From: a bacterium
GTDB taxonomy: Bacteria > Patescibacteriota > Minisyncoccia > UBA6257 > GWB1-50-10
Assembly: GCA_021814165.1 (NCBI GenBank)
Contig: JAKAIX010000001.1
Coordinates: forward strand, 1-48,598
Direction of reading: 5' to 3'
Length of the DNA stretch: 48,598 bases
Position 1 is the stretch's first letter. Each line of letters starts with the position of its first letter. Shown here in pieces: positions 18,056-38,374 of this stretch. Below the pieces are notes generated by a model, which worked only from the letters and a program-made list of their open reading frames with translations, searched no databases and was not told the origin of the DNA. Both the position numbers and the translations under genes were made by a program.

Positions 18056-18100
18056 TCAATCTATCGAGGCCCGGCCTCGATAGAAAAGTGGATAACTTTC
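18056..18100. repeat. Dispersed palindrome + DnaA-box-like element, copy 1
   Basis: TCAAT-CTATCGAGGCCCGGCCTCGATAG (18061-18083)-AAAA-GTGGATAACTTT. Confidence 0.85.
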
Positions 18101-18102
18101 AA

Positions 18103-19344
18103 ATGAGAAAAAAGAAAAAACAAGATACCCTCTTCGATAATCCGGAGGAGGAACAGAAAGAAGAAACTTCGAAGTCTGTTTTTTCGGTGGGGGAGTTTCT
18201 CGATTATATCAACGAAATTTTCAAGCGCGAGGAGTATACCGTCTTGGGGGAGATTTCCGAGTTGAATTCCCACCCAACTGGTGTTTATGTCACCTTGAAG
18301 GATAAGGAAGGAGAAGGAATCCTCAACTGTTACATAAATCCTTTCATATATCGCACGGCAGGAATCTCACTTGAAGTCGGACTTCTTGTAAAAGTTCACG
18401 GATCCCCTGGTATCCATAAACCAAAAGGCAAGTTCAGTTTTGTGGTTAGAGAATTTGAACTCTTCGGAGAGGGATCACTTCGTCGTGCGTACGAACTTTT
18501 AAAGAAGAAACTCGAAGATGAGGGACTTTTCCGGCGGAAACGCCCGCTCCCGGAATGCATACGCGAGGTCGGAATCATTACCTCGAAAACGGGAGCCGTG
18601 ATCGATGATTTCAGAAAAAATCTGAAGCCGCTCGGGATGCGGCTTCATCTCTTCGATGTGCGGGTCGAAGGTTCTACCGCGCCGCGGAATATCATGAAAG
18701 GAATAAAATGGTTCAATGCGAAAATGCCGGAATGCGACGTTATTGTTCTGATCCGCGGCGGCGGGAGTCTGGAGGATCTCCAGCCGTTTAACAACGAACT
18801 CGTGGCGCGGGAGATATTCGCTTCGTCCATTCCCGTGATTGCGGGCATAGGCCATGATCGCGATGTTCCCATCGCGAGTTTGGTTGCTGACGTGATGACT
18901 TCTACCCCCTCCTTCGCCGCGATGACCGTGAACGGATCATGGGACAAGCTTGTGTTGGGACTCCCTGATCTCGAGCGGGAACTATTCGGTCTCTTTGAGG
19001 AAGTCATCGATAGATCGAAATCTCGCGTGATTCTCTCTACCGACCGCCTCCTGGAAAGGATCTCCCGCCTTATTGTACGGTATAAAGCCGTTGCGGATGC
19101 GATAGTAAACGCTTTTTCTCTTCGGATTCAAAAGGTAAACGAATTTCTGAAGCATGCTGGGCACTATCTCGCCGCAGTCGATCCGGAGAGGAATTTGCGC
19201 CTCGGATATAGTATTATTTTCAGTGAGAAGGGGAATGTGATAAAGGATGTCGCGGATACGGGTGAAGGGCGATCGATCGCCGTGCGACTCCATAAAGGAT
19301 CCCTGAAAGCTCGGGTCGAACATATAGAGCGGGACACGCAATAA
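18103..19344 (+). CDS. xseA: Exodeoxyribonuclease VII large subunit
   Basis: 'GEISEL', 'VGIITSKTGAVIDDF', 'LIRGGGSLEDL', 'GIGHDRD', 'TSTPS', 'LRLGYSI'. Confidence 0.95.
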   Translation: MRKKKKQDTLFDNPEEEQKEETSKSVFSVGEFLDYINEIFKREEYTVLGEISELNSHPTGVYVTLKDKEGEGILNCYINPFIYRTAGISLEVGLLVKVHGSPGIHKPKGKFSFVVREFELFGEGSLRRAYELLKKKLEDEGLFRRKRPLPECIREVGIITSKTGAVIDDFRKNLKPLGMRLHLFDVRVEGSTAPRNIMKGIKWFNAKMPECDVIVLIRGGGSLEDLQPFNNELVAREIFASSIPVIAGIGHDRDVPIASLVADVMTSTPSFAAMTVNGSWDKLVLGLPDLERELFGLFEEVIDRSKSRVILSTDRLLERISRLIVRYKAVADAIVNAFSLRIQKVNEFLKHAGHYLAAVDPERNLRLGYSIIFSEKGNVIKDVADTGEGRSIAVRLHKGSLKARVEHIERDTQ

Positions 19345-19349
19345 CGTTT

Positions 19350-19571
19350 ATGGAAAAAACAAAGAAAGAGAAAAAAGATATCGGTGCGGAACTCGGAAAA
19401 CTGGAGAAAATCGTCCAATGGTTCGAGACGCAGGATCAGGTGGACGTCGAAGAAGGTCTTTCAAAAGTGAGGGAGGGTGCGGAGCTTATCAAAGATCTCA
19501 AACAAAAAATAAAGAAGGTTGAAAACGAGTTCGAAGAGATAAAAAAAGATCTTTCGGATGACGCCGAATAG
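19350..19571 (+). CDS. xseB: Exodeoxyribonuclease VII small subunit
   Basis: 73 aa, 'LEKIVQWFE...VDVEEGL...GAEL'; follows xseA. Confidence 0.9.
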   Translation: MEKTKKEKKDIGAELGKLEKIVQWFETQDQVDVEEGLSKVREGAELIKDLKQKIKKVENEFEEIKKDLSDDAE

Positions 19572-22050
19572 CGGACCACGTGAGGCATTTCCGGGGCTTT
19601 CCTCGAGAGAGGCCGCCGATCAGTTGCGCACATTCGGGGAAAATACCATCGCGAAAAGAAAGCGGTTCAGGCCGCTTATTGCGTTTTTCCAGAAGTTTGA
19701 GAGTCCGCTTCTCCTGCTTCTCATCGGCGCTTCCGTCGTTTCTTTCTTTGTGGGCGAACGCACGAATGCGGTCATTATTATCGTCATGGTGTTCGTATCC
19801 GCCGTACTTGATTTCGCGAATAGCTACAAATCCGAAAAGACCGTATTGAAGCTCCTCGAGCGGGTTACCACTACCGCGACCGTAATGCGGGACGGGCGGA
19901 AAAAAGAAATAAATCAGAAGGAAATCGTTCCGGGAGATATCGTGCTCCTCGCTGCCGGAGATGCGGTGCCTGCGGATGCCCGCGTTCTTGAGGCAAAGGA
20001 CTGCTTCGTAAATCAGGCGGCGCTCACGGGCGAATCATTCCCCGTTCCGAAGTATGCCGAAGAAGGAACGGATCGCGGCGGCGAAGCGCCGGCGGAGCAG
20101 CCCGATTTTGTGTGTATGGGCACGAATGTAGTGACGGGGTATGCCACGATTAAAGTGCTTCAGACGGGTTTTTCTACGGAGTTCGGAAAGATTGCCGCGC
20201 GCGTCTCCGCCGAAACGCTTCCGACGGAGTTTGAAAAAGGGATAAAAACGTTCAGCGCATTCATCATGCGTCTCACGTTCGTAATGGTCGGCTTCGTGTT
20301 TGTGGCGAACGCGCTCGTAGGGCACGGCGTTTTCGATTCCTTCGTGTTCGCGATTGCCATTGCGATCGGTCTCACGCCCGAGCTGCTTCCGGTCATCATG
20401 TCCGTGTCCCTAAGCAGGGGATCCCTCGAAATGGCAAAGAAGAACGTTATAGTGAAAAACCTTTCTTCGATCGAGAGTTTCGGCAGCATGAATGTGCTTT
20501 GTACCGACAAGACGGGAACGCTTACCGAAGACAGGATTACGCTTGTGCAATATGTCGATTGTTTCGGAAATGTTGCGGAAGACGTATTCACTCATGCGTA
20601 CGTAAGCAGTTTTTTCCATACGGGCATCAAGAGCCCTCTTGATAAGGCGATTCGCGAGCATAAGTCGGTCGAGACCGGCGCGTATAAAAAGATCGACGAG
20701 GTGCCGTTCGATTTTGAACGGAAGCGCGACTCGATAATATACAAGAAGGAAGGGGTATGTACGCTTGTCACAAAAGGAGCTCCCGAGGACATACTTTCCA
20801 TCGCTACCGCGTTCAATGAAAAAGGGACGAAGAAAGTGTTTACCGTTGCCGTGAGGAACGCGGCTCTCGCCGAGTTCGAAAAATTAAGCGGCGAAGGATT
20901 CAGGGTGCTCGCGGTCGCCGAAAAAGAGGTTTCGGAAAAAGGAAAATATACGAAGGAAGACGAAATAGACATGAATTTCCTCGGTTTCATGGCATTCTAC
21001 GATCCGCCGAAGAGTACGGCATCCTCCGCTATCAAGGATCTGGAAGAGCTTGGAATAGAAGTAAAAATTCTGACGGGCGACAACGAGATCCTGACCCAAA
21101 GGATTTGTCACGAAATCAACTTGCCGGTGAAAGGGACGCTGAAAGGTCCTGAAATCATAATGATGAATGATGAAGAACTCCTCAGGAGAGCGCGCATGAC
21201 GACGATCTTCGCGCGCATTACGCCGGACGAGAAAGAACGCATCATTCTCACTTTGAAAAAAGCGGGATATTCCGTGGGGTATCTCGGCGATGGCATTAAC
21301 GATGCGCCCGCCCTGAAAGCCGCCGATGTGGGGCTTTCGGTCAATAATGCCGTCGACGTGGCGAAGGAAACGGCAGACATCATTCTTCTCGAAAAAAGCT
21401 TGCGGGTATTGCATGACGGCATCACGGAAGGCAGAAAAACGTTCGCGAATACAATGAAATACATCATGATGGGCTTGAGTTCCAATTTCGGGAATATGTT
21501 CTCGATGATGGGCGCTTCGCTTATTCTTCCGTTTCTGCCGATGCTGCCGCCGCAGATACTTCTGAATAACTTCCTCTACGATACCTCGCAGCTTACCCTT
21601 GCGACGGACGCGGTGGACGGAAATCTCGTGAAGAAACCGCCGCGATGGGATATTAAGTTCGTAAAGAAGTTTATGATCGTCTTCGGACCGATAAGTTCCA
21701 TCTTCGACTTCGCCACATTCGGTCTGTTGCTTCTCGTATTCCGCCTCCCGGAGTCCCAATTCCAGACGGGATGGTTTATCGAATCGCTTGCGACGCAAGT
21801 GTTCGTAATCTATATCATACGAACACGGCTCATTCCCTTCATGCAAAGCAGACCGAGCAGACCGCTTTTCCTGAATACGCTGCTTGTCGTAGTGATAGGT
21901 TGGGTGATCCCGTTCGTGGGATTGGGAGCGTTCTTCTCGTTCACGTCGCTGCCGCTTTCGGTGCTTCTCGGTATCGCGGGAATCGTGCTCGCGTATCTTG
22001 TCGTGACGGAAGTGGCAAAGCGCGTGTTTTTTGCTAAAATGATTTTATGA
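19558..22050 (+). CDS. mgtA: Magnesium-translocating P-type ATPase (MgtA/MgtB family)
   Basis: TGES, 'TPELLP', DKTGTLT, 'GDGINDAPALK', 'SSNFGNMFSM', 'QILLNNFLYD'. Confidence 0.92.
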   Translation: MTPNSGPREAFPGLSSREAADQLRTFGENTIAKRKRFRPLIAFFQKFESPLLLLLIGASVVSFFVGERTNAVIIIVMVFVSAVLDFANSYKSEKTVLKLLERVTTTATVMRDGRKKEINQKEIVPGDIVLLAAGDAVPADARVLEAKDCFVNQAALTGESFPVPKYAEEGTDRGGEAPAEQPDFVCMGTNVVTGYATIKVLQTGFSTEFGKIAARVSAETLPTEFEKGIKTFSAFIMRLTFVMVGFVFVANALVGHGVFDSFVFAIAIAIGLTPELLPVIMSVSLSRGSLEMAKKNVIVKNLSSIESFGSMNVLCTDKTGTLTEDRITLVQYVDCFGNVAEDVFTHAYVSSFFHTGIKSPLDKAIREHKSVETGAYKKIDEVPFDFERKRDSIIYKKEGVCTLVTKGAPEDILSIATAFNEKGTKKVFTVAVRNAALAEFEKLSGEGFRVLAVAEKEVSEKGKYTKEDEIDMNFLGFMAFYDPPKSTASSAIKDLEELGIEVKILTGDNEILTQRICHEINLPVKGTLKGPEIIMMNDEELLRRARMTTIFARITPDEKERIILTLKKAGYSVGYLGDGINDAPALKAADVGLSVNNAVDVAKETADIILLEKSLRVLHDGITEGRKTFANTMKYIMMGLSSNFGNMFSMMGASLILPFLPMLPPQILLNNFLYDTSQLTLATDAVDGNLVKKPPRWDIKFVKKFMIVFGPISSIFDFATFGLLLLVFRLPESQFQTGWFIESLATQVFVIYIIRTRLIPFMQSRPSRPLFLNTLLVVVIGWVIPFVGLGAFFSFTSLPLSVLLGIAGIVLAYLVVTEVAKRVFFAKMIL

Positions 22051-22388
22051 CGTTCGAAGAATATGAGGCATTTTGTAAGAAACTCGCTTTGTACCCAAAA
22101 ACTCCCACGGTAGCGGGAAGAAGCATTGTCTATCCCGTGTTGGGGTTGGTAGGGGAAGCGGGAGAAATAGCCGAAAAGGTGAAGAAGCTCCTCCGCGACA
22201 AAAATGACACGCTTGACGAAGCCGCGAGGAGGGAAATAGGGAAAGAGCTGGGAGATGTGCTCTGGTATCTTTGCAGGTGTGCCGCCGAATTCGGATTCTC
22301 GTTTGAGGAAATAGCGAACATGAACGTCGAAAAACTAAGCTCTCGTCACGAGCGCGGCGTAGTGCACGGTGACGGTGATAATAGATAA
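22047..22388 (+). CDS. MazG-like nucleotide pyrophosphohydrolase
   Basis: 'LGLVGEAGEIAEKVKK...ELGDVLWY...N..KL'. Confidence 0.88.
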   Translation: MTFEEYEAFCKKLALYPKTPTVAGRSIVYPVLGLVGEAGEIAEKVKKLLRDKNDTLDEAARREIGKELGDVLWYLCRCAAEFGFSFEEIANMNVEKLSSRHERGVVHGDGDNR

Positions 22389-22392
22389 TTAT

Positions 22393-23094
22393 ATGTCAGA
22401 AGGTCAAAAACAAAACGGAAGCATCTTAAACGTCACAAGAGCGGACCAGTATCATACGGTTGAAGAGCTCTTCAGGAAGAGCGAGCCAAACTCCGTTTAT
22501 TATGCGTTGCTTATAATTTCGGTCTTCATTATCGCGTCAGGACTCCTTCTTGGAAATTCGGCGATCGTGATAGGAGGAATGCTTGTGACGCCGCTTTTGA
22601 CGCCGATCCTCGTCATCGCGCTTTCTTTCATAGTGGGAAATTTCAGGGCGATCCGGAACACGAGCATTATCATGACGAAATCCTTCTTGTTGGTAATAGC
22701 CGTCTCGGGTCTCCTCGCGTTTGTATTCGGCGCGCCGAAGAATATTGAGATGCTCGAAAATACCATGCGTACGGCGGTGCTGTATTTTATCGTGGCGATC
22801 GCGGCCGGAATGGCAGGCACTTTCGCATGGACAAGAAAAGATGTCGCCGAGGTGCTTCCGGGTATCGCCATTGCGGTGTCACTGGTGCCCCCCTTGGCGC
22901 TTATGGGAATATGGCTGAGTTCTCTCAACTTCGACGCGGTGCGTTTTTCTTTTCTCGTTTTTCTTTTTAACTTTCTCGGCATTCTGGTGGGGAGCGTGGC
23001 GGCATTCATACTCATGAAATTTCATCGGGCCGAGAGACTGATTGAAGAAAAAGCGGAGATACAAGTCGAAGAAGCGGCCAAAAAGGAGAAATAA
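22393..23094 (+). CDS. DUF389 / TIGR00341-like membrane protein
   Basis: 'SAIVIGGMLVTPLLTP', 'LPGIAIAVSLVPPL'; about seven TM helices. Confidence 0.85.
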   Translation: MSEGQKQNGSILNVTRADQYHTVEELFRKSEPNSVYYALLIISVFIIASGLLLGNSAIVIGGMLVTPLLTPILVIALSFIVGNFRAIRNTSIIMTKSFLLVIAVSGLLAFVFGAPKNIEMLENTMRTAVLYFIVAIAAGMAGTFAWTRKDVAEVLPGIAIAVSLVPPLALMGIWLSSLNFDAVRFSFLVFLFNFLGILVGSVAAFILMKFHRAERLIEEKAEIQVEEAAKKEK

Positions 23095-23096
23095 TA

Positions 23097-23423
23097 ATGA
23101 ATATTCCGTTCGATGATTTTCAGAAGCTTGATCTGCGGATTGCGAAGATACTTGAAGCGTCGCGTATTGAAGGATCGGAGAAACTGTTGAAACTTGCGAT
23201 TGATATAGGCGACGAAAGACGACAGCTGGTAGCCGGCGTTGGGAAAGTATATGAACCCGAATCGCTCATCGGAAGAGAGATTGTAATTGTTGCGAACCTT
23301 GAGCCGAGAGTCATGATGGGATTCGAGAGCCAGGGAATGCTCCTCGCCGCACACGATGAGAACGGAAATCCGGTGCTTTTGATGCCGGAGAAAGAAACGC
23401 CGCCGGGAAGCATTATTACATAA
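23097..23423 (+). CDS. tRNA-binding OB-fold protein (CsaA/Trbp111/MetG C-terminal-like)
   Basis: 'FDDFQKLDLRIAKI', 'KLLKL', 'VANLEPR', 'ESQGMLLAA'. Confidence 0.9.
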   Translation: MNIPFDDFQKLDLRIAKILEASRIEGSEKLLKLAIDIGDERRQLVAGVGKVYEPESLIGREIVIVANLEPRVMMGFESQGMLLAAHDENGNPVLLMPEKETPPGSIIT

Positions 23424-23557
23424 AATTCCAAATCCTAAGCACCAAATCCCAAACAAATTCCAATGACAGAAATTTCAAATTCAAAACACGTGTTTCGATC
23501 ATTGTGATTTTGTATTTTGGTCATTATTTAGGATTTAGAAATTAGAGTTCGGGATTT
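23424..23557. repeat. Imperfect inverted array of short AAAT(C/T)CC-type units
   Basis: Left arm carries AAATCCTAA, AAATCCC and AATGAC; right arm carries the complements GTCATT, TTAGGATTT and GGGATTT. Confidence 0.55.
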
Positions 23558-23565
23558 TTTACTAT

Positions 23566-24417
23566 ATGTCTCGTCCGAAAATAGGCGCTCACGTATCCGC
23601 GGCAGGGGGACTTTGGACCGCATTCGATCGGGCGAACGCGATCGGAGCCGAATGCATTCAGATATTCGGATCGACGCCTCGTTCCTGGAGCGTAAAACTT
23701 CCGAATCCGGCAGAGGTGCGCAAATTCAGGGAAACTGCGAAACGCACGGCAATCGGTCCGATATATCTTCATGCGCCCTATCTCATAAATCTCGGAAGCG
23801 GGGAGAAACGTCTCTTTGGCGCGTCTCAGGCGTCCTTGAAGGGCCATTTGAAGATCGCGGAGATGCTCGGTGCGAAAGGCGTTATTTTCCATATCGGTTC
23901 TGCGAAGGGAAGCACGAAGGGAAAAGCGATCCCGCAGATTGCTTCGTCTTTGAAGGCAATCTTAAGAGAAATTTCGGGGAAAAGCCTTTTAATTCTTGAA
24001 AACGCGGCGGGGGGAGGCGACAAAATAGGAGCAGTCCCGGAAGAAATCGCGGATATTTTGAAACGAATCGGGAACACGAGAGCGAAAGTGTGTCTTGATA
24101 CCGCGCACGCATTTGAAGCGGGGATTATCTCGGAATATACTCCTCCGGGAGTCGCGAAATTATGCAAAGAGTGGGATGCCGTAATTGGGCTTGAGCGGAT
24201 TGTCGCGTTGCATGCAAATGACTCGAAAACGGCGTATAATTCACATAACGACCGACACGAAAATATTGGCGAGGGACATATCGGACTTCTTGGATTTAAA
24301 GCGCTCGCGAAAGAAAAACGGCTGTGGAATAGGGATTGGATTTTAGAAGTCCCGGGAAATGACCATGAAGGCCCGAATAAAGAGAATGTCGATCGCTTAA
24401 AATCATGTTTTTCTTAA
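23566..24417 (+). CDS. nfo: Endonuclease IV (AP endonuclease)
   Basis: 'IGAHVSAAGG', 'HAPYLINL', 'LENAAG', 'CLDTAHAF', 'LHANDSK', 'DRHENIGEGHIG'. Confidence 0.95.
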   Translation: MSRPKIGAHVSAAGGLWTAFDRANAIGAECIQIFGSTPRSWSVKLPNPAEVRKFRETAKRTAIGPIYLHAPYLINLGSGEKRLFGASQASLKGHLKIAEMLGAKGVIFHIGSAKGSTKGKAIPQIASSLKAILREISGKSLLILENAAGGGDKIGAVPEEIADILKRIGNTRAKVCLDTAHAFEAGIISEYTPPGVAKLCKEWDAVIGLERIVALHANDSKTAYNSHNDRHENIGEGHIGLLGFKALAKEKRLWNRDWILEVPGNDHEGPNKENVDRLKSCFS

Positions 24418-24430
24418 GTTTTATTATTCG

Positions 24431-24532
24431 TCCCGCACCGCATTACTCCTCAGCTCGGGCGCTCCGGGCCGCCTGCCTGCGCAGGCAGGCTTGGCCAAGT
24501 CCTACCCTCGTTCGGAGGAACGCGGTGCGGAA
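24431..24532. repeat. Nested palindromic element with CCGCACCGC/GCGGTGCGG ends and a central perfect 20-bp palindrome
   Basis: CCGCACCGC 24433-24441 / GCGGTGCGG 24522-24530; TCCTC/GAGGA; GCCTGCCTGCGCAGGCAGGC 24471-24490. Confidence 0.7.
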
Positions 24533-24599
24533 CTAAAAAGGAAACATATTAAAATCTCACACTTTCAAGCGATCTGCGAGAAAATGAGGAACAACAAAA

Positions 24600-24818
24600 A
24601 TGAAACTATTCGTAACTGTAAAACCTAAGGCAAAAAAGAAGAGCGTAATGAAGATCGACAGAACCCACTATGTGGTCGCGGTGACGGTTCCGCCGGAAGC
24701 GGGAAAAGCGAATAGTGCCGTACGTGATGCGCTTGCCGAATTTTTGGATGTTCCGAAATCGAGAATGGTACTCTCATCGGGTGAGAAGTCGAGGGAAAAG
24801 ACATTCGAGATACTATGA
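24600..24818 (+). CDS. DUF167 / YggU family protein
   Basis: 'VTVKPKAKK', 'PPEAGKANSAV', 'SGEKSREK'. Confidence 0.9.
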   Translation: MKLFVTVKPKAKKKSVMKIDRTHYVVAVTVPPEAGKANSAVRDALAEFLDVPKSRMVLSSGEKSREKTFEIL

Positions 24819-25099
24819 GTTTCAGGGAAAGGGTCATAGGAACGGTAAGAAAAATCCCAAGAGGCGCAACCGCAAGTTACAAACAGGTTGCCGAAGCGGC
24901 AGGAAGTCCCGGAGCATACCGCGCGGTAGGAACTATTCTTAGGGAGAACAGCGATCGGAGCGTACCGTGCCACAGAGTAATCCATTCCGACGGATCCCTT
25001 GGAGGATATAACGGAATGAAAGGAAGGAAAGAAATTTTGCTTCGAAAAGAAGGAGCGTTGTTGCCGGACGGAACATGGAAGAAGATCAAAAGAAAATAA
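24815..25099 (+). CDS. Single-domain O6-alkylguanine-DNA alkyltransferase (MGMT family)
   Basis: 'IPRGATASYKQVA', 'YRAVG', active-site 'PCHRV'. Confidence 0.88.
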   Translation: MSFRERVIGTVRKIPRGATASYKQVAEAAGSPGAYRAVGTILRENSDRSVPCHRVIHSDGSLGGYNGMKGRKEILLRKEGALLPDGTWKKIKRK

Positions 25100-25347
25100 A
25101 AGAACGGACGACGGAGTTAAAGAAAGAAGTCCGAGAAAGAACCGTGGGGTATATTGTAGCGGCTCTCGGGCTCGTTGCGGGTCTCGCATGGAATGATGCG
25201 GTGAAATCACTTATCGAGTATTTCTTCCCGCTCCAGCAAAACACGGTCTTCGCGAAGTTCTTGTACGCGTTGTTCATCACGTTCGTGATTGTACTGGTAA
25301 GTATTTATCTTACGCGGCTCGCAAAGGGGAACGATAAGGGAAAATAA
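25075..25347 (+). CDS. DUF5654-like small membrane protein
   Basis: 'AALGLVAGLAWNDAVKSLI...KFLYALFIT'; two TM helices. Confidence 0.75.
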   Translation: MEEDQKKIKERTTELKKEVRERTVGYIVAALGLVAGLAWNDAVKSLIEYFFPLQQNTVFAKFLYALFITFVIVLVSIYLTRLAKGNDKGK

Positions 25348-25416
25348 AACACCTCGTCGCAAGCGATGGGGTGTTTCGCGAATAATGAGCCGAGATCTGC
25401 CTGTTTCGCTCGCTTG

Positions 25417-25499: not shown

Positions 25500-25514
25500 A
25501 TCCCAAATACTCCG

Positions 25515-25543: not shown

Positions 25544-25550
25544 AAATACA

Positions 25551-29943: not shown

Positions 29944-29956
29944 AAATATTTAGACT

Positions 29957-31600
29957 ATGGCGAAACAAATCAAATTTAACGAAGAGGCACGCGTTGCCTT
30001 AAAAAAGGGAATTGACATGCTCGCCGCGGCGGTCAAGATGACGCTTGGTCCCCGTGGACGTGCGGTCGTGATAGAAAAAGGATATGGCGCGCCGCAGGTT
30101 ACCTTCGACGGCGTGACGGTCGCGAAAGAAGTTGAGCTTGAAGGAAAGTACGAGAATCTCGGTGCCGAATTCATAAAACAGGCGGCGGACAAGACAAACG
30201 ATAATGTGGGGGATGGTACCACCACTTCGGTCGTGCTGACGCACGCCCTTATCGAGGAAGGGGAAAAAGTCATCCGTGAGAAGGGATTTAACGTGATTCA
30301 GCTTGCGGAAGGTCTGAAGAACGAAAGCGAGTCGGTGATTAAAGCGTTGGAAGCGCAGAAAGAAGAGATTAATGACAACAAGAAAATCGAGGAAGTGGCA
30401 ACATTATCCTCGAAGGATACCCAAATCGGCAAACTTATCGCCGAAGTGATGGCGAAGGTTGGAAAGGAGGGCGTCGTGACGGTCGAGGATTCGAATACGC
30501 TCGGCAACTCGTATGAGATGGTCGAAGGCATGGAGTTCGACAAGGGGTATGTTTCGGGCTACATGGTTACGAATCAGGAGAAGATGGAGGCCGAACTCGA
30601 TGATCCGTACGTGCTCGTGACCGACAAGAAAATTTCATCGATTAACGAACTGCTTCCGCTTCTGGAAAAGGTGCTTCAGAGCGGCAAGAAAGAGTTCTTT
30701 ATCGTCGCTGATGACGTGGACGGCGAAGCGCTTGCGACGTTGGTGGTAAATAAGATCCGCGGGATCGTAAACGTTCTTGCGGTCAAAGCGCCGGGATTCG
30801 GCGACAGGAAAAAGGAAATGCTCCAGGACATTGCGGTCGTGACCGGTGCGGACTTTATTTCCGAAGATCTCGGGAAAAAGTTCGAGAACGTTGGCGTGGA
30901 AAATCTTGGTCATGCGCATCGCGTGATTGCGACGAAAGACGCCACGACGATCGTGAGCGGGAAAGGAGATAAAAAAGCGATCGAGGACAGAGTCGCGCAA
31001 ATCAAGGCGCAGATCAAGAAAACCGATTCCGAGTTTGATAAGGAGAAGTTGCAGGAACGTCTCGGCAAGCTCGCGGGAGGTGTCGCGGTCATCAAGGTCG
31101 GTGCACCGACGGAATCCGCGCAAAAAGAATTGAAACAGCGCGTTGATGATGCGGTTGCCGCGACTCGAGCGGCGATGGAGGAAGGAATCGTACCCGGAGG
31201 CGGCGTTGCGCTCCTTAATGTTTACCAGGCGAAATTGCACGAACTTTCGAAGAAAAGCGATGGTATCGAGAAAGACACTATTGGGATTCTTCTCGCCGCA
31301 TTGAAGGCGCCGCTCTCGGCAATCATCGAAAACAGCGGCGAATCGCCGAAAGTATTGATTGAAGAGCTTCTCTCGAAGAAGAAGGGGAATGGAGACGCAT
31401 GGATCGGCTTTAATGCCGCGACGAACAAAATTTCCGACTTGAAGGAGTCGGGTATTATCGATCCGTTGAAGGTAACGAAGACCGCATGGAGGAACGCGAT
31501 TTCGGTTGCCGCGAACTATCTCACCATCGGCGCCGCGATTACGGAAATTCCCGAAAAGAAGAAAGGAGGCCCCGCCGGCATGCCGGAAATGGATTATTAG
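29957..31600 (+). CDS. groEL: Chaperonin GroEL
   Basis: 'TLGPRGR', 'GDGTTT', 'EGMEFDKGY', 'VKAPGFGDRKK', 'EGIVPGGG', 'GIIDPLKV'. Confidence 0.98.
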   Translation: MAKQIKFNEEARVALKKGIDMLAAAVKMTLGPRGRAVVIEKGYGAPQVTFDGVTVAKEVELEGKYENLGAEFIKQAADKTNDNVGDGTTTSVVLTHALIEEGEKVIREKGFNVIQLAEGLKNESESVIKALEAQKEEINDNKKIEEVATLSSKDTQIGKLIAEVMAKVGKEGVVTVEDSNTLGNSYEMVEGMEFDKGYVSGYMVTNQEKMEAELDDPYVLVTDKKISSINELLPLLEKVLQSGKKEFFIVADDVDGEALATLVVNKIRGIVNVLAVKAPGFGDRKKEMLQDIAVVTGADFISEDLGKKFENVGVENLGHAHRVIATKDATTIVSGKGDKKAIEDRVAQIKAQIKKTDSEFDKEKLQERLGKLAGGVAVIKVGAPTESAQKELKQRVDDAVAATRAAMEEGIVPGGGVALLNVYQAKLHELSKKSDGIEKDTIGILLAALKAPLSAIIENSGESPKVLIEELLSKKKGNGDAWIGFNAATNKISDLKESGIIDPLKVTKTAWRNAISVAANYLTIGAAITEIPEKKKGGPAGMPEMDY

Positions 31601-31604
31601 AAGT

Positions 31605-31687
31605 TAATGAGGCCCGGCCTCAATAAAGTTATCCACAATTTTATCGAAGCCCGGCCTCGATAGATTGAACGGCCTCGATAGATTGAA
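31605..31687. repeat. Dispersed palindrome + DnaA-box element, compound copy 2
   Basis: GAGGCCCGGCCTC, TTATCCACA (31629-31637), TATCGAAGCCCGGCCTCGATAGATTGAA and a tandem half-copy GGCCTCGATAGATTGAA. Confidence 0.85.
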
Positions 31688-31711
31688 GAACCGCCCTTCG
31701 GGGCGGTTCTT
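31686..31711. terminator. Bidirectional intrinsic terminator between groEL and the thyX-like gene
   Basis: AAGAACCGCCC-TTCG-GGGCGGTTCTT, an 11-bp stem with a UUCG loop. Confidence 0.85.
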
Positions 31712-31712
31712 G

Positions 31713-33383
31713 TTATTTAAGTTTTTCGAAGTAATCCCTGAGTTCCTGCTCTTTCTTCTCAATCTCTGACTGGGTATCGCGCCGGGCGAAGGCATAATCC
31801 TGCATGTCGGCAAGAATGAATTTGCCGAGAAGGGGATATACCTCTCGGATAAGTTTTACTTTCTCCTGTTCGATCTTCCTGTAATCCGGATGCCCTGTGG
31901 GAATGGTGCGGAGTTCGGATTCCCACATAAACGCCCGCATGTTCTGGCGTTGGAGAAAACGCAAGCGATGAGCGAGCGTTACCGCATATTGGGCGAGGTT
32001 TTTATCCTTCGACTCTATTTTGTAAAATACCCCTTCAACTTTCTCGATTGCGGCGCGGAACTTGTTGTCCAACTTCGCTTCGATGAGTTCTTCGGGGACG
32101 TGGTAGCCGTGATGGACGCTGAAACGCTGCCGCATCTGGGTTTGCATGCGATGGCGGTGAATATCCCGCCACGCGCCGATATTCATCGTGATTTCAAAAG
32201 CGACATTTGCCATCTCGAAAGCGCGGGGAATCTTGTACCAGCGGGCCGTGCGTCCTCGTATGGCACGGGCGAGAAGCTGTTCCTTTTCTTCTTCGGAAAG
32301 TTTTACGACCTTTCCGAGTATCTTCTCGAAAGGTTCGTGCGTTTCGGGATAAAGGAGCGCGGCAAGAATTTTATTTTCGCCGTCCTTGTCATACTCCACC
32401 AATTTCACGCCCCATTCTGATTTATCTACGTTCGCGTCAAGCTTAAGTTCTTTCACGACCTCGCGGATGCGCGCTCCGCGTCCGGCGAGATATTCCTGGT
32501 ATTCTTTCGAAGCGTCGCTTTCGAGACGCCGCAGAAAGGCGGGTACAACGCGCGTGAGTTCATGAAATGCCGCATCGGCTGCCCAGCGGATTTCTCCCAG
32601 AGGGTGTTTAAGCGATCGGGAAAGCGCGTATTCGAGCGCCTGGCCGTTTGCGAAGAAAACCACCTGGCTTAATGCCGCGGTGGGAAGAAGTCCGCGAAGC
32701 GTGTCGAATGCCTTTGTTTTTAAAACAAGCTCCTTCTCGTCGGGGTACTTCTTTTTCAAAAACTCGAGGAATTCCTTTCCGAGCAACGCATAGGTATCGA
32801 AAAGATTATCCATTGCCGTACGGTATTCGTCCATAAGGCCCATCTCGGCGAGCGTCGGATCGGCATAGTAGAGATATTTGCCGTTCACTTTTGACGAGTA
32901 ATCAAGGTAGCGGGTGGACTTTTCGAGCGGTGCAATTCCGACGCGCATGTCTTCAAAATGCTTAATGGCGATTTGAGAGATGCCGGAAAAAAGGAGATGC
33001 GTGCCCGCCATCTGAGCAATCGAATCGTCGCCGTACTGTGCGAGCCATTTGATGTAAAATTCGCGCCCCTTGGGATTCGAGAAAATGAGTTCGAGAGGAT
33101 ACTTGTGCAGGAATTCCACGAGCGAACTCAAGGCCTCGCTGTATTCGCTCTTGTCGGCAAGGAAAGGTTTTATAAACTCGTTTAAAAATATCATCCGCAG
33201 ATCCTCTTTGGCGCGGCTCGTTCTGGAGCACAAAGCGCCGATCATCTCGGGCGGCAGAAAGGGCACCACGAACACGGATCGCTCGAGATTAGTGAAGAAC
33301 GGCTCGATTTGGTACTTCTCTTCCGGTGAGAGACTGAGCTCGGGGAAGAGGGGGGCGAACTTTTCGAGATTGTCTTCCGGCAT
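31713..33383 (-). CDS. thyX: FAD-dependent thymidylate synthase, double-length (tandem ThyX-like)
   Basis: 'QYGDDSIAQ', 'LEKSTRYLDY', 'DTLRGLLP', and a second half with 'RDIHRHR'. Start is ATG 33383 or 33392. Confidence 0.8.
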   Translation of the reverse strand: MPEDNLEKFAPLFPELSLSPEEKYQIEPFFTNLERSVFVVPFLPPEMIGALCSRTSRAKEDLRMIFLNEFIKPFLADKSEYSEALSSLVEFLHKYPLELIFSNPKGREFYIKWLAQYGDDSIAQMAGTHLLFSGISQIAIKHFEDMRVGIAPLEKSTRYLDYSSKVNGKYLYYADPTLAEMGLMDEYRTAMDNLFDTYALLGKEFLEFLKKKYPDEKELVLKTKAFDTLRGLLPTAALSQVVFFANGQALEYALSRSLKHPLGEIRWAADAAFHELTRVVPAFLRRLESDASKEYQEYLAGRGARIREVVKELKLDANVDKSEWGVKLVEYDKDGENKILAALLYPETHEPFEKILGKVVKLSEEEKEQLLARAIRGRTARWYKIPRAFEMANVAFEITMNIGAWRDIHRHRMQTQMRQRFSVHHGYHVPEELIEAKLDNKFRAAIEKVEGVFYKIESKDKNLAQYAVTLAHRLRFLQRQNMRAFMWESELRTIPTGHPDYRKIEQEKVKLIREVYPLLGKFILADMQDYAFARRDTQSEIEKKEQELRDYFEKLK

Positions 33384-33480
33384 TGCGTCCATTATACCCC
33401 CCTTCTTAATTCGGGTAATCTTGACTTTTATGTGTTTTTGAGTCATTGTGTTAGCTCAAGAATTGCACATTGTTATAAAA

Positions 33481-33654
33481 CGGGGAGTAGCTCAGCCAGG
33501 TTAGAGTGCCAGATCGTGAAAGATGTAACAATCGTTATTTTGAATAATCTTTTCCTATTTCATTGTGCCAATTGACGAGAATGAGATTGGCGCCCTTGAA
33601 ATCGATTGCCTTTCTGTGGTTTGGAGACCGAAGGTTCGAATCCTTCCTTCCCGA
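33481..33654 (+). tRNA. tRNA gene interrupted by a 99-nt insert in the anticodon loop (identity uncertain: His-like anticodon arm, Pro-like acceptor)
   Basis: Acceptor CGGGGAG/CTTCCCG + A73, D-arm GCTC..GAGT, anticodon stem CCAGA/TTTGG, variable AGACC, T-arm GAAGG-TTCGAAT-CCTTC. There are 106 nt between the anticodon stem strands instead of 7. Confidence 0.75.
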
Positions 33655-33656
33655 CG

Positions 33657-33685
33657 AAACCGTGGTTCTCCCTCGCGGTTTTTTA
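33657..33685 (+). terminator. Intrinsic terminator after the interrupted tRNA
   Basis: AAACCGTG-GTTCTCCCT-CGCGGTTT followed by further T's. Confidence 0.65.
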
Positions 33686-33754
33686 AAAAAAGAGAGCAGT
33701 ACTGATTTTTCTGCTCTCCTTTGTATTTTATGTGGTTTTTGCTATACTTAAGGC

Positions 33755-34309
33755 ATGTCTACAGGAATAATAATTCTTTTAGTAGTAGTCGTTATCGTGT
33801 TGTGGGTGATCGGCGCCTTTAACGGTCTTATCTCCCGCAAGAACAGGGTCGCCGAAGCGTGGTCCGACATTGAGGTGCAGTTAAAGCGCCGGTATGATCT
33901 GATTCCGAACCTGATAGAAACCGTAAAAGGATACGCAACGCACGAGAAGACGATTTTGGAAGATGTGACAAAAGCGCGCACTGCCGCTATGTCCACGGAA
34001 GACCCAAAGGCAAAACTTCAGGCGGAAAACCAGCTTTCGCAGACTCTGAAGTCGCTCTTCGCGGTTGCGGAGAATTATCCTCAACTCAAGGCGAACGAGA
34101 ATTTCGGAAAGTTGCAGGATGAGCTCACGGATACCGAAGATAAGATTCAGGCAGCGCGGCGTTTCTATAATGGCAACGTCCGCGATTACAACACAGCGAT
34201 CGAAGTATTTCCGAGAAACGTTATTGCAAAGATGTTCGGCTTCGGACAGAAAGAGTTGTTCGATGTCGATAACGACATTGAGCGCCAGCCCGTCAAGGTG
34301 AAGTTTTAA
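33755..34309 (+). CDS. lemA: LemA family protein
   Basis: N-terminal TM, 'EAWSDIEVQLKRRYDLIPNL', 'ENYPQLKANENF', 'AARRFYNGNVRDYN'. Confidence 0.95.
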   Translation: MSTGIIILLVVVVIVLWVIGAFNGLISRKNRVAEAWSDIEVQLKRRYDLIPNLIETVKGYATHEKTILEDVTKARTAAMSTEDPKAKLQAENQLSQTLKSLFAVAENYPQLKANENFGKLQDELTDTEDKIQAARRFYNGNVRDYNTAIEVFPRNVIAKMFGFGQKELFDVDNDIERQPVKVKF

Positions 34310-34503
34310 TTTTGTTGTTCAGAATCCAACAACCCGAAAAAGTGTGCACTTGCTTGAAAAGCAAACCAACATCAGGAAGATTCAGTTTTGTTTTTTAAGC
34401 ATCCCGAGGAGTTCACGACGAGGGGCTGCCTTATCTACTCGAGTTTTACCCACTTTTTCGAATTGTCGGATTCCTCACATATTTTTGTTGTGGTTTTGAG
34501 AAT

Positions 34504-35418
34504 ATGAAGACACTCTACACGCAGGCCTCGTCGAACGTCAGAAAAACGTGGGCGCTTCTCACGGGTTTCTTCGTGCTTATTATCGCCCTGGGATGGCTTT
34601 TCAGTTATGCTTACCGGTCGCCCGGCATTCTCGTTTTTGCGGTTATTGTGAGCTGCGTGATGAGTATCACGAGTTATTGGTTTTCGGATAAGATAGTTCT
34701 CGCGACCGCCGGCGCGAAGCCGATCGAGAAAAAAGACAATCCCGAGCTGTACCGCCTCGTCGAAAATCTTACGATTGCGGCGGGACTCCCGATGCCGAAG
34801 CTGTATGTCATTCCCGTTGCCGCACCGAACGCCTTTGCGACGGGAAGAAACAAGGAGCATGCGGTAGTGGCCGTGACGGAAGGACTTCTTCAAATTTTGG
34901 ATAAACAGGAACTTGAGGGAGTGCTTGCGCACGAGCTCTCGCACATAGGGAACAAAGACATGCTTGTCTCGACGGTAGTCGTGGTGCTTGTGGGGGTGAT
35001 TTCAGTATTAGCCGATTGGTTCATTCGCATGAGCTTTTTCGGCGGGAGGCGCGACGACAGGGACTCGGGCGGCAACATTATGTTCTTTTTGGGAATCGCG
35101 GGCGCGATACTTGCCCCGATTGCGGCTGCCTTGATTCAGCTTGCAATCTCCCGAAAGCGTGAGTTCCTTGCGGACGCTTCAGGAGCGCTCCTTACCCGCT
35201 ATCCCGACGGTCTTGCAAGCGCATTGGAGAAGATTGCGAGGAATCCGAATCCGATGCCCGGCGCGTCATCCGCGACGGCGCATCTCTACATCGAGAATCC
35301 TTTTAAAGCCGACAGAGGAACGGGAGATTCGAGAAAAACTCCTTGGATCGCTCGTCTCTTTATGACCCACCCTCCCGTTGAGGAACGAATAAAAGTTCTG
35401 CGAGAGATGTCAATTTGA
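34504..35418 (+). CDS. htpX: Zinc metalloprotease HtpX (M48)
   Basis: 'PNAFATGR', HExxH 'AHELSH', 'SRKREFLAD', 'THPPVEERI'. Confidence 0.95.
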   Translation: MKTLYTQASSNVRKTWALLTGFFVLIIALGWLFSYAYRSPGILVFAVIVSCVMSITSYWFSDKIVLATAGAKPIEKKDNPELYRLVENLTIAAGLPMPKLYVIPVAAPNAFATGRNKEHAVVAVTEGLLQILDKQELEGVLAHELSHIGNKDMLVSTVVVVLVGVISVLADWFIRMSFFGGRRDDRDSGGNIMFFLGIAGAILAPIAAALIQLAISRKREFLADASGALLTRYPDGLASALEKIARNPNPMPGASSATAHLYIENPFKADRGTGDSRKTPWIARLFMTHPPVEERIKVLREMSI

Positions 35419-35430
35419 TATCTCTTGGCA

Positions 35431-36981
35431 TCAAACGAACCCTGGGAAAAAATCGGTTTTGATATTATTCTGGGGGATACCCGTGTCTTGGAGCATTGTT
35501 TCGTTTGCGACGACGAATGCCCGGGGGCCTGAAATGTAAAACAAACATCTTTTGTAATCGGGCACCTCTTGCATGATCATCGCGGGAGAAATTCGTCCCT
35601 GGCTTCCATCCCAACCAGAAGGAATTTGCTTTATGTCCGTAAGCGTATACACGACCCGTATGCCGAGTTTCTCTTTCGCTTCATCGAGAATTTCTCGATA
35701 GGCGATTTCATCAACGTTCTTATTCGAGTAAAAAATAGTTACCCTCCTTAACTCGTTCTTGTCGACGAGATACTTTATCATGCTCCGGAACGGCGTGATG
35801 CCGATGCCGCCTGCGAGAAAAACCAACTTTTTATTCTTGTTTCGCGGAAGCGTGAAGTCGCCGGCCAGTTGAGAGGCAACAATGCGATTTCTCCCGTTCA
35901 TCGCGAGAAGCGATTTTTTGAAACTGCTGGCTTCTGGATAGAATTTTACGCCGATCAAAAGTTCTCGCTCCGTAGGTGAGGAGGCGATGGTAAAGTAGCG
36001 GCGATTTCCGCGACTGTCGGGATGCACGTGCTCCAGGGTCCACTCCATGTATTGTCCGGGCCGGAATTTGATTCTTTCTTTCGGAGAAAAAGAAAAATCA
36101 TACGTATCGGAGGCGATCTTTGTTTTTTTCTTCACGTTGAGCACCAGTTTTTTCTTGGGGCTCACGAGGTAGGAAAACACGTTTCCCGCGAGAAGCGCGA
36201 GTTCCGGGGTCGAATAGATCGAACCGATGTGCACCGCGGGAGCGAATAACAAACCAACGAGCGCGCCATATGCGATTCTCAATGCGCGCGTAGGCGGCGT
36301 AGTGAGCGGTTCAGTAATCATCACGAATGCGAAGAACAAAAGGGGAGAGTCAAGAAACGCCTTAGAGAGATTTGAAAAGAAGCCCGACCCGTTCACTATC
36401 CCGAAAAAAGAGATGGAAACAAGCGCGAATCCAAGGAAGCTTAATGCCAAGTCGGTTCTCACTATCTTCCTTACTATCAGGACGCCTCCCAAAATCACGA
36501 ACGGAAGAAGAATGCGGTTTCCCGCCCACCAACTCGCGGATTGCCCTATGGTAAGCGCGGTAAGCGCGACTCCGAAAGCGGCGGGATTAAAGAGATGTTT
36601 TTTCTTGATGGTGAGAATGTACTTTGCCGCCATTGCCCAGATGCTTGCCCAGATAAAGAGGGGGAACATTTCAAGGGAGGGGAGTTTGATCGGCGTAATA
36701 ATGAGCGTAAGAATAAGCGCCGTGATGTAAACCGATTCCACGTTGGTAGGCGCTTCGAATATGCCTGCAAAAAGCTTGTTGGTAATCCAGCATGCCGCGA
36801 AGATTGTCGCGGCCGATACGGCAATATCGAGCGGTCCGAAGGAAAATGTGCCGGAAAAACTCAGTACGAGTGCGATGAAGAGAAGCAGCGAGAGATAATA
36901 CAGTATGAGACGGTACATTGTCACCCGATTCAGGATGCCGTCGGCAAATTCGAGGAGCTTGTCGGTTATCTTACGAAACAT
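35431..36981 (-). CDS. NqrB/RnfD-like membrane domain fused to an FAD/NAD(P)H-binding ferredoxin-reductase domain
   Basis: Polytopic N-terminus with 'KHLFNPAAFG' and 'MITEPLTTP'; C-terminus with 'FRPGQY', 'RRYFTIASSP', 'AGGIGITPFRSM', 'YISGP'. Confidence 0.85.
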   Translation of the reverse strand: MFRKITDKLLEFADGILNRVTMYRLILYYLSLLLFIALVLSFSGTFSFGPLDIAVSAATIFAACWITNKLFAGIFEAPTNVESVYITALILTLIITPIKLPSLEMFPLFIWASIWAMAAKYILTIKKKHLFNPAAFGVALTALTIGQSASWWAGNRILLPFVILGGVLIVRKIVRTDLALSFLGFALVSISFFGIVNGSGFFSNLSKAFLDSPLLFFAFVMITEPLTTPPTRALRIAYGALVGLLFAPAVHIGSIYSTPELALLAGNVFSYLVSPKKKLVLNVKKKTKIASDTYDFSFSPKERIKFRPGQYMEWTLEHVHPDSRGNRRYFTIASSPTERELLIGVKFYPEASSFKKSLLAMNGRNRIVASQLAGDFTLPRNKNKKLVFLAGGIGITPFRSMIKYLVDKNELRRVTIFYSNKNVDEIAYREILDEAKEKLGIRVVYTLTDIKQIPSGWDGSQGRISPAMIMQEVPDYKRCLFYISGPRAFVVANETMLQDTGIPQNNIKTDFFPGFV

Positions 36982-37714
36982 ATTGTTCGAAACCGGAGGT
37001 CATCGTTGCGAGGCCCGTGGTATCGATCATATATCCTTCGAGTCCCGGCCGACGTTCGATAAAAAGAATCCCTTTTCTCCCCATTGCGAACGCGGCTGTT
37101 GCAAAACGATCCGCCTCGTATATGTCCGGTCCGATGACGGTAATGCTTAAGATTTCTTTCACCGGGGTACCGTGCATATGGGGGTTATAAATGTGTTCGC
37201 CTCTCTCGTATATCCCCGAAGTGGCCGTACCTCCGTTCCCGGGTGTAATTGCTTTTACGATTTTGTCCTTGCTCAAGGGGTTCCGAATGCCGACTTTCCA
37301 ATTTTCTCCCTTGCTATTTTTTCCTCGAACCTGAATATCGCCCCCGGCGTTGACGTAGTAACGCTTGAACCCTTTCTCATCGAGCATCTTTGAAGCGTTC
37401 CAAATAGCCCATCCCTTCACAAGCCCCGAGGGGTTATAGATTCCCTCGGGGGTGGTGATGTCAAAATAACCGTCCGTTTCGATCCTGGTCTGTTCGGAAA
37501 GCGCGAAAACGGTTTTCATGTCCTCGCTTCGTTCGTGTTCCCGCAGTTCGCCTCTGTTGATTTTCGAGAGCTCGCTTGTTGTTTTGAAAGGACTGAATGT
37601 TTCATCCACGTACGTGAAATAGTCGAATACGTCGCGTGCCGCGTCTTCGGCGTCGATGCGATTCTCGAGTTCGATGGTAATAGGCATGCCCATTATAATC
37701 TTGGTCTCTTTCAT
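36971..37714 (-). CDS. apbE: ApbE-family FAD:protein FMN transferase
   Basis: 'MGMP', 'FSPFKTTSELS', 'PSGLVKGWAI', 'VNAGGDI', 'ATSG', 'ADRFATA'. Confidence 0.9.
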   Translation of the reverse strand: MKETKIIMGMPITIELENRIDAEDAARDVFDYFTYVDETFSPFKTTSELSKINRGELREHERSEDMKTVFALSEQTRIETDGYFDITTPEGIYNPSGLVKGWAIWNASKMLDEKGFKRYYVNAGGDIQVRGKNSKGENWKVGIRNPLSKDKIVKAITPGNGGTATSGIYERGEHIYNPHMHGTPVKEILSITVIGPDIYEADRFATAAFAMGRKGILFIERRPGLEGYMIDTTGLATMTSGFEQYVS

Positions 37715-38205
37715 AGTTGGTTTTTTGCCTGGGTGAGCGCCGAAGCGATCGATTCGATGAACCCGTTGCTTGTTTCCGTCGCGCCGGAGACGATGTCTAC
37801 GTTCGCGCTTTGCGCCTGGATCGCCTCCTGTTTCAATTGGGGTATCGATTCGTTGCTGATCATCAAAGATGTTCTCCGGTCCTGCGGATAGTCCAGAAAT
37901 TGGACATCCGTTATCTTTCCGTTTTGGACGATTACCTTCACTTGGACATTTCCGTAATATGCGTCGGCAACCTTCCCGACATATTCGCCATCTTTATAGA
38001 GGCCGGTCGTCGTTGTCGGTTGTTTTGACGCGATCGCGGGAGAAGAAGGATTCCGAGCCGGCTCGGACAGTTGCTGCTGTTTCTTCTTTACCGTTCCCGT
38101 AGTATCCGAAGAAACCGCAATCGTGTACGGTTCGGGTTTCTGCGAAAGAAGCGCATAAAATGCGAAGACAATTATGAGAAAGAATGAAAGAAAAAATTTT
38201 TTCAT
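37711..38205 (-). CDS. Membrane-anchored FMN-binding (flavinylated) protein
   Basis: N-terminal TM, 'YKDGEYVG', 'GNVQVKVIVQNGKITD', flavinylation motif 'DIVSGAT'. Confidence 0.9.
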   Translation of the reverse strand: MKKFFLSFFLIIVFAFYALLSQKPEPYTIAVSSDTTGTVKKKQQQLSEPARNPSSPAIASKQPTTTTGLYKDGEYVGKVADAYYGNVQVKVIVQNGKITDVQFLDYPQDRRTSLMISNESIPQLKQEAIQAQSANVDIVSGATETSNGFIESIASALTQAKNQL

Positions 38206-38335
38206 TGTATGGATCGACGCTCCGATAGTATCCCTATACTACATTCCTGCCCCTGTTTTTATTACAATAACAAGCGAAAAAAGAGAGATTCCTCTTAAGG
38301 AAGGAATAAATATCCTGTGCAGAATGTTGATATAA

Positions 38336-38374
38336 CAATCTATCGAGGCCCGGCCTCGATAGACTTGTGGATAA
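38336..38374. repeat. Dispersed palindrome + DnaA box element, copy 3
   Basis: CAAT-CTATCGAGGCCCGGCCTCGATAG (38340-38362)-ACT-TGTGGATAA (38366-38374). Confidence 0.85.

Follow-up and report, generated by a model that had tools for sequence, protein, structure and literature searches.

The window analysed here is the whole stretch of 48,598 nucleotides at C5:1-48598, part of an 11-contig, 786-kb assembly with 49% GC (genome code G000) from a patescibacterium of the candidate phyla radiation (CPR). Three of its intergenic spacers, between dnaJ and xseA (site 1), downstream of groEL (site 2), and ahead of a ParB-like gene and a sigma factor (site 3), carry a 23-bp palindrome coupled to a short motif resembling a DnaA box, hereafter named the box. 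The first-pass annotation had reported these three sites in this gene context, with an inverted and partly duplicated copy after groEL, and direct reading of the DNA confirmed their positions and neighbours. The 23-mer CTATCGAGGCCCGGCCTCGATAG is exact at sites 1 and 3 and has two mismatches at site 2 (Table 1), and zero matches to it appeared in 100 shuffles. The 9-mer was also as first described, being a perfect TTATCCACA at 31629-31637 (minus-strand sense TGTGGATAA) and 38366-38374 and AGTGGATAA, with one mismatch, at 18087-18095. The three sites are probably non-autonomous hairpin repeats of the repetitive extragenic palindrome (REP) type, similar to REPINs (REP doublets forming hairpins) and bacterial interspersed mosaic elements (BIMEs), and are associated with a REP-associated tyrosine transposase (RAYT); the box that they carry may be a linker module for a host factor.

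Table 1. Features of the three repeat sites and of the adjoining stem-loop, in window coordinates
Feature	Position	Strand	Sequence	Context
Site 1, single repeat unit	18057..18098	+		spacer dnaJ (stop 18046)-xseA (ATG 18103)
Site 1, tag	18057-18060	+	CAAT	
Site 1, 23-bp hairpin	18061-18083	+	CTATCGAGGCC-C-GGCCTCGATAG	
Site 1, box	18087-18096	+	AGTGGATAAC	linker AAA before, TT after
Site 2, REPIN/BIME-like doublet	31604..31685	-		3' of groEL (stop 31600)
Site 2, tag and hairpin	31641-31667 (plus coordinates)	-	CAAT + hairpin	hairpin 31641-31663
Site 2, box	31628-31637	-	TGTGGATAAC	
Site 2, second, degenerate hairpin	31604-31626	-		
Site 2, partial duplicate, 16 nt	31670-31685	-		hairpin right arm + tag
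Terminator-like stem-loop	31686..31716	.	GAAGAACCGCCC-TTCG-GGGCGGTTCTT + T-run	read from sequence
Site 3, single repeat unit	38336..38375	+		divergent spacer FMN_bind (minus strand, start 38205)/ParB-like (38455)
Site 3, tag	38336-38339	+	CAAT	
Site 3, hairpin	38340-38362	+		
Site 3, box	38366-38375	+	TGTGGATAAG	linker ACT before

Across the 786-kb genome, 27 loci carry a total of 34 hairpins of this family, where 0 are expected by chance, and nearly all loci are short intergenic spacers of every type, convergent genes included. A box, called as G[T/G]GGATAAC with at most one mismatch, follows the hairpin at 19 of the 27 loci, 5-6 nt past its 21-mer core, against ~0.05 expected by chance, and its offset is identical in 45 of the 48 box-bearing copies of three species taken together. 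The near-constant spacing, which had been taken from the three sites alone to argue against chance, holds across these copies, and the preset counter-case that most copies would lack the box is not what the genome contains.

The copied unit measures ~42 bp (CAAT-cTATCGAGGCC-S-GGCCTCGATAr-WWTT-GKGGATAAC-TT), and the consensus of the 45 box-oriented copies reads yCAAT-c-TATCGAGGCC-G-GGCCTCGATA-r-WWTT-G-K-GGATAAC-TT, comprising a 5' CAAT tag, a near-perfect 23-bp hairpin, a 4-5 nt A/T linker, the 10-mer box T/A-G-K-GGATAAC and a final TT. Homology between copies starts abruptly at CAAT and stops on the other side at GGATAACTT, decaying past AAC-TT, which bears out the earlier proposal of a composite repeat whose box is copied as part of one unit. 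Contigs from the source metagenome that match the repeat alone align from 18056/57 to 18095/99, the edges of the unit, and because these alignments end at 18095/99 the box lies inside the repeated unit. Among the 45 copies the tag is conserved as C in 30, A in 41, A in 36 and T in 35, and the central base of the hairpin is G in 36, indicating that hairpin and box form a polar unit copied whole. At the variable box position K, 27 copies have T and 18 have G, giving 60% TTATCCACA and 40% TTATCCCCA, while the A/T linker beside the box varies far more than the box itself.

Copies without a box are mostly symmetric 31-bp palindromes, CAAT-hairpin-ATTG, in which the tag is mirrored as ATTG on the opposite side, or else second arms of doublets. 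Doublets of the form hairpin-box-hairpin occupy five loci, about one locus in five (C3:39192, C5:31605, which is site 2, C5:115856, C5:159815 and C6:2116). The hairpins of the copies differ by 0-2 mismatches each, and their single-stranded DNA (ssDNA) folds with a z of about -5 (-13.8 kcal/mol and z -5.2 at site 1, -13.3 kcal/mol and z -5.6 at site 3); at site 2 an alternative fold of -15.2 kcal/mol pairs the inner arms of both hairpins and leaves the box in the loop. Neither terminal inverted repeats (TIRs) nor conserved target-site duplications were found, the positions outside CAAT and past ...AACTT being random in the 45 copies, and a miniature inverted-repeat transposable element of the TIR type, derived from a DDE transposase, was rejected for a hairpin with a one-sided box that has neither. 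An Rfam scan of the window at the gathering threshold returned two tRNAs only, and the repeat fits no known RNA family. A related GC-rich motif, GGAGGCCCGGCTTCCT...GGAGGCCGGGCCTC, was noticed at C3:19830-19855, at C5:54290-54335 and in G001 (L068); it has the GAGGCCSGGCCTC core without the TATC/GATA stem base and, judging by this likeness, may be a second repeat subfamily.

The genus was sampled with G000 and three congeners, G001, G002 and G003. Three of the four species possess the hairpin, with 34 hairpins in G000 (own scan) and 17 and 59 pattern matches in G001 and G003 against 0 in G002, and it occurs in none of 37 other sampled genera of the family and order. Neither element nor box is present in the dnaJ-xseA spacers and groEL downstream spacers of the three congeners, the dnaJ-xseA gap of G002 being only ~10 bp. 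These empty orthologous spacers indicate that the element was gained or lost as a unit, and together with the unequal copy numbers they support the first suggestion of a mobile element. The box as a pre-existing insertion target was rejected, since the empty orthologous sites lack it and G002 contains only 6 such 10-mers in total. Where G000 has the 42-bp unit, the dnaJ-xseA spacer of G003 (L062) extends over 235 bp with a long imperfect inverted repeat, which from its sequence may be a different hairpin element. Units show no significant preference for pointing towards gene starts (12 of 19), and copies are not concentrated near the skew-inferred origin. A promoter element was likewise discarded, the box lying at no consistent distance from -10-like hexamers and copies also occurring between convergent genes. 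A link to GIY-YIG genes was set aside too, as the palindrome has no copy next to the GIY-YIG cassettes of this genome.

An enzyme of the Y1/HUH (histidine-hydrophobic-histidine) type flanked by the palindrome had been predicted, and such a gene exists. The Y1_Tnp search of G000 gave one match, at C3:34680-35405, outside the window. This RAYT-like open reading frame (ORF) encodes 241 aa with the motifs IYHVYNRG, HFH (the HUH motif) and YYIHANP; it scores 34.9 bits against Pfam Y1_Tnp (cut-off 23), and its nearest NCBIfam model is the REP-associated tyrosine transposase. The AlphaFold model has a predicted local distance difference test score (pLDDT) of 79.8. In the PDB its fold is matched best by 4ER8, the complex of the E. 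coli RAYT with a REP hairpin (E 5e-5, probability 1.00), and next by the TnpA structures of IS608 and ISDra2. The family counts more than 7,400 homologues, whose attached names are largely those of Patescibacteria. In addition, the protein has an extra conserved C-terminal region of ~80 aa (YRWSS...FFGGE); the C-terminal 84 aa gave no Pfam match up to E 10 and only spurious hits in a PDB profile search, and the isolated domain was modelled poorly (pLDDT 59). The idea, derived from PMC6006769, of a C-terminus that resembles DnaA domain IV and reads the box received no support in these Pfam and PDB profile searches and was dropped.

The RAYT-like genes are closely linked to hairpins. In G000 one unit lies ~45 nt before the RAYT-like ATG and another 710 nt upstream, while a remnant of the hairpin follows past the stop. 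The species with an 88%-identical protein has the repeat on both flanks of its gene, a unit upstream and a hairpin-box-hairpin doublet downstream, and the G003 orthologue is followed by CAAT-hairpin-ATTG 5 nt past its stop. For a 46%-identical homologue in another metagenome-assembled genome (MAG), labelled Saccharibacteria, the same palindrome abuts both gene ends without a box. At this last locus (L015:3433-4125) the RAYT-like ORF runs into the palindrome, its last codons being repeat-encoded, and its ATG directly adjoins the palindrome on the upstream side. In G001, G003, G012 and G025, paralogues and homologues are each flanked by their own different hairpin, mostly inverted. G002 possesses a different hairpin, TTATCAGAGCNNNGCTCTGATAA, in 3 copies only, two of which bracket a RAYT-like gene pair; each of the three has TTT-TGKGGATA behind it at the same offset. 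The box stands between hairpin and RAYT-like ATG in G000, in G002, whose hairpin differs, and in the species with the 88%-identical protein. A further hairpin repeat of G002, GGTGTCCAACCTCCTTAA(TTTT)AAGGAGGTTGGACACC, was observed at at least 3 loci (L009/L110-L112, L070); it adjoins two of the three box-bearing hairpins and is also present downstream of groEL.

In the scheme proposed here, the resident RAYT-like HUH/Y1 tyrosine transposase would most likely generate and maintain the hairpin family. If the enzyme acts as those of E. coli TnpA-REP and IS200/IS605 do, it would recognise hairpin and tag together on ssDNA and would then cut and rejoin at sites nearby. The box may serve as a linker module with a host-factor site that is copied within the unit, in which case each insertion would set a potential binding site into an intergenic spacer; both the transposition by the RAYT-like protein and the binding of any protein to the box are what we infer. 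A comparable arrangement is known from the L linker of BIME-1, which often carries a site for the integration host factor (IHF) (PMC3333891).

Several observations weigh against an assignment to the REP type. The tag is CAAT, not GTAG or CGTC as in the described REP super-families (PMC3733652), and the stem is perfect, whereas E. coli TnpA-REP requires a stem mismatch (PMC3333891). Against NF047646 the RAYT-like protein scores 39.8 bits, short of the equivalog cut-off of 80. RAYT-like proteins with no more than 46% identity share one flanking hairpin core, so that hairpin and enzyme do not strictly co-vary. G027 contains a box-bearing palindromic repeat, yet a search at E 1e-10 gave no homologue of the RAYT-like protein there, which indicates that the box is independent of this enzyme. 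The assembled contigs of the metagenome runs showed neither excision or insertion junctions nor joints of population-level empty sites, and the strand bias relative to replication is weak (13/19, one-sided p ~0.08, not significant).

REP-RAYT systems are mainly described from proteobacteria, and the BIME-1 elements of E. coli are also known as RIB-RIP. Like the REPtron of E. coli, Pseudomonas and Stenotrophomonas (PMC2817692, PMC3116915, PMC3333891, PMC3733652, 4ER8), the present family consists of short GC-rich extragenic hairpins in tens of copies, occurring as singlets and inverted doublets with a lineage-specific distribution, and it is accompanied by a single- or few-copy HUH/Y1 gene that is flanked by the repeats and has 4ER8 as its best fold match. 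Unlike the REPtron, it shows the CAAT tag and the perfect stem, it resides in an ultra-small CPR genome, its protein lies below the NCBIfam equivalog cut-off and bears the additional ~80-aa C-terminal region, and a conserved 10-mer box stands at a fixed offset. The closest functional analogy is BIME-1, in which a host-protein motif in the linker of a REP doublet is dispersed along with it (PMC3333891); the present motif, by its sequence, matches DnaA and MraZ boxes rather than IHF sites and accompanies single hairpins as well. TnpA-REP subclass 2.1.2 (PMC6006769) similarly ties RAYT-family enzymes to DnaA-type recognition and to the idea of replication targeting, but its DnaA-like part is a Bac_DnaA_C-like C-terminal domain of the protein, whereas here that part is in the DNA, and the repeats flanking the subclass do not resemble DnaA boxes (PMC6006769). 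The ends of IS200/IS605 and derived elements (2VJV, 2XM3) are also read by a Y1 HUH enzyme as subterminal ssDNA hairpins, with cleavage at a fixed distance from the hairpin foot; the gene here, however, is not multi-copy, no TnpB partner is seen beside it, and the repeats far outnumber it. A search of the accessible literature library found no publication linking REPs to CPR/Patescibacteria, or to DnaA or MraZ boxes.

The box is also a native motif of the order, TGKGGATAAC exceeding its reversed control in 24 of 25 order genomes. Perfect copies of TTATCCACA number 20 in G000, 10 of them inside the elements. The sole cluster of box-like 9-mers in this genome, at C5:121384-121552, lies directly upstream of mraZ (C5:121677-122108) as a phased, same-strand array of AAGTGG, AGTGGATAAG, TGGGGATAAC and TGGGGATAAG. 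All 24 relatives in which mraZ was found have an upstream array of 3-5 same-strand units (AAGTGG, TGTGGATAA, TGGGGATAA) with 10-12 bp spacing, and in distant families only TGTGG with 6-nt spacers is left of it. Published MraZ operators are built of three or four GTG(G/T) boxes with 6-nt spacers (PMC12957436), and by this resemblance the array looks like an MraZ operator whose units mimic DnaA boxes. The cluster was also considered as oriC and rejected, since by cumulative GC skew the origin falls on C8 near dnaA (DnaA is encoded at C8:124873-126255), and it is the terminus, near C5:148 kb, that neighbours the mraZ array. Between dnaA and dnaN, 15 relatives have 0 to 5 (mostly 2-5) DnaA-type boxes each, 39 in total, with TTATACACA 8, TTATCCACA 5, ATATCCACA 4 and TTATCCCCA 3 among the variants, and this clustering indicates that the DnaA of the lineage probably reads the same consensus. 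Compared as a sequence, the box of the elements matches both the DnaA-box consensus of the dnaA-dnaN spacers and the conserved mraZ operator array.

Outside these arrays, a solitary TGTGGATAAC is located ~60 nt upstream of lexA, just before a TTGACT/TAGAAT promoter (C8:86738-86747), and another at C8:85254-85263, downstream of a TTGACT-N17-TATAAT promoter beside smpB. Unrelated dispersed palindromes of two other genera contain the motif too. G013, with 58 copies of the 10-mer in its genome, has the element GTTATCCACA-N4-TTTAKGCCCTCGGGAGGCMTAAA-N4-TGKGGATAAC, and G027, from another family of the order (L146-L159), has ~14 copies of the 44-bp perfect palindrome TGTGGATAAC-TGTTTCTGACGATCGTCAGAAACA-GTTATCCACA. 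The same 10-mer is thus found in three unrelated palindromic repeat families with three geometries, those of the genus of G000, of G013 and of G027. Its recurrence in unrelated repeats and in G027 indicates that the box, not a particular hairpin, is the recurrent module, and suggests, as far as sequence comparison goes, that the box rather than any hairpin is under selection. Two side observations concern such blocks. The G013 palindrome TTTAKGCC-CTCGGGA-GGCMTAAA (L105-L109) has inverted boxes on both sides (GTTATCCACA ... TGKGGATAAC), one copy lying ~170 nt upstream of the RAYT-like gene of that genome; and in G009 (L127:2026-2660) a ~60-bp promoter block, GTTATCCACA-GGCGYGTGA-...-GCTATAAT, is present twice, with two small ORFs between the duplicates.

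As the putative reader of the box, DnaA is a possible but tentative candidate and MraZ a more doubtful one, the remainder of our expectation going to a role in RAYT processing or to no role. One consensus box suffices for DnaA binding in studied systems, and the R1 and R4 boxes of E. coli end in the same trailing C as the 10-mer. Were the box a functional DnaA box, the elements might exist or be kept for DnaA titration or promoter-replication coupling, as a dispersed system similar to datA, which we regard as unlikely. The elements supply half of the perfect 9-mers of the genome (10/20), boxes of the same consensus between dnaA and dnaN in 15 relatives make it very probable that the DnaA of the lineage reads it, and the full 10-mer TGTGGATAAC, beyond the TGTGG core, is kept in the unrelated repeats of G013 and G027. 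Of the 45 boxes, 27 are perfect TTATCCACA, in agreement with the initial reading of the 9-mer as a DnaA box, and the other 18 are TTATCCCCA and depart at a fixed position from the stringent consensus TT[AT]TNCACA (PMC6006769). With TGGGG common and TGTGT rare, the element boxes resemble the mraZ array, unlike the dnaA-dnaN spacers in which TTATACACA is commonest, a spectrum drawn from copies that are not independent samples. Just 3 such elements in the sister species G002 and none in most relatives, the lack of a concentration near the skew-inferred origin and the lack of a significant gene-start bias also speak against this reading. From its sequence a DnaA function of the box is plausible, and MraZ is a serious rival reader.

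If the box is an MraZ box, the elements would spread the operator motif of a cell-division regulator, possibly derived from the mraZ promoter, and MraZ would meet them; this account is improbable to much the same degree. The array of 24/24 relatives fits the published operator architecture (PMC12957436), the MraZ of the organism retains the DxKGR motifs, in which the base-contacting residues Lys13, Arg15 and Arg86 lie, and the array sits near the skew terminus, away from the origin. Exact 10-mers such as TGGGGATAAC are common to array and elements with the same T/G alternation, and the element box is identical to units of the mraZ upstream array of the order, but MraZ binds robustly through cooperation among several phased boxes, three or four at one promoter (PMC12957436), whereas the dispersed elements have one box each. 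Moreover, the invariant part of the element box is GGATAAC, of which ATAAC lies outside the MraZ core, and not the GTG(G/T) core, and the mraZ array of G027 needs no ATAAC, yet the dispersed repeats of that genome keep the full TGTGGATAAC.

It is conceivable, if rather doubtful, that the box has no host-factor role and that its likeness to regulatory motifs is incidental, the box being either a RAYT processing signal, for example for cleavage at the conserved C^T edge, which stands at a fixed distance from the hairpin, or a co-copied flank of the RAYT gene. Its place before the RAYT-like ATG even where the hairpin differs (G002), and the decay of unit homology directly past GGATAAC-TT, would agree with this, as would the C^T cuts that E. 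coli TnpA-REP makes in linkers next to REPs (PMC3333891) and the conserved 'tails' at the untagged REP end, whose function is not known (PMC3733652). The copies are also young, with the few mismatches per hairpin given above, so that conservation of the box may reflect recency instead of selection. What disfavours this account is that the 10-mer recurs in three unrelated repeat families, one of them in a genome without an enzyme homologue, that it is over-represented order-wide outside repeats and is located in promoter regions such as those of mraZ and lexA, that the adjoining linker is far less conserved than the box, and that the same hairpin in the Saccharibacteria-labelled MAG still flanks a RAYT-like gene without any box.

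A stronger version seems quite improbable, in which selection maintains the DnaA-type 10-mer as a functional component of several independent palindromic mobile elements of this CPR order, and the elements present it beside or within a hairpin stem so that the host initiator is recruited. DnaA beside the A/T linker might help hairpin extrusion or duplex opening, and the opened DNA would then be the ssDNA substrate of the HUH enzyme, with copying tied to replication. Alternatively, box-containing hairpins could be the places on the lagging-strand template where DnaA-dependent helicase loading or priming occurs, for which the 'ABC primosome' hairpins of E. coli plasmids provide the model. In either version, if true, a mobile repeat would exploit the replication initiator.

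The REP-type reading, which we prefer, would place a REP-RAYT-type system, active or recently active, in an otherwise stripped-down sub-megabase CPR genome. In dozens of spacers its elements set an exact match to a core regulatory motif of the lineage, which could be that of DnaA, MraZ or both, and they offer a testable example in bacteria of mobile DNA dispersing the sites of a transcription factor or an initiator. Because the densest cluster of 'DnaA boxes' lies at mraZ near the terminus and half of the perfect boxes reside in repeats, origin predictors that count boxes would be misled in this order.

Two further features belong to the surroundings of site 2, where groEL faces a convergent thyX-like gene. 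The GC-rich stem-loop that adjoins the doublet (Table 1) gave no further copy in genome-wide repeat scans; it is an ordinary terminator-like hairpin common to the two convergent genes and lies outside the repeat. The thyX-like ORF itself, at 31713-33446 on the minus strand of the window, encodes 577 aa, of which the N-terminal ~350 aa have no Pfam match at E 1e-5 and only residues 348-538 form the ThyX (Thy1) domain.

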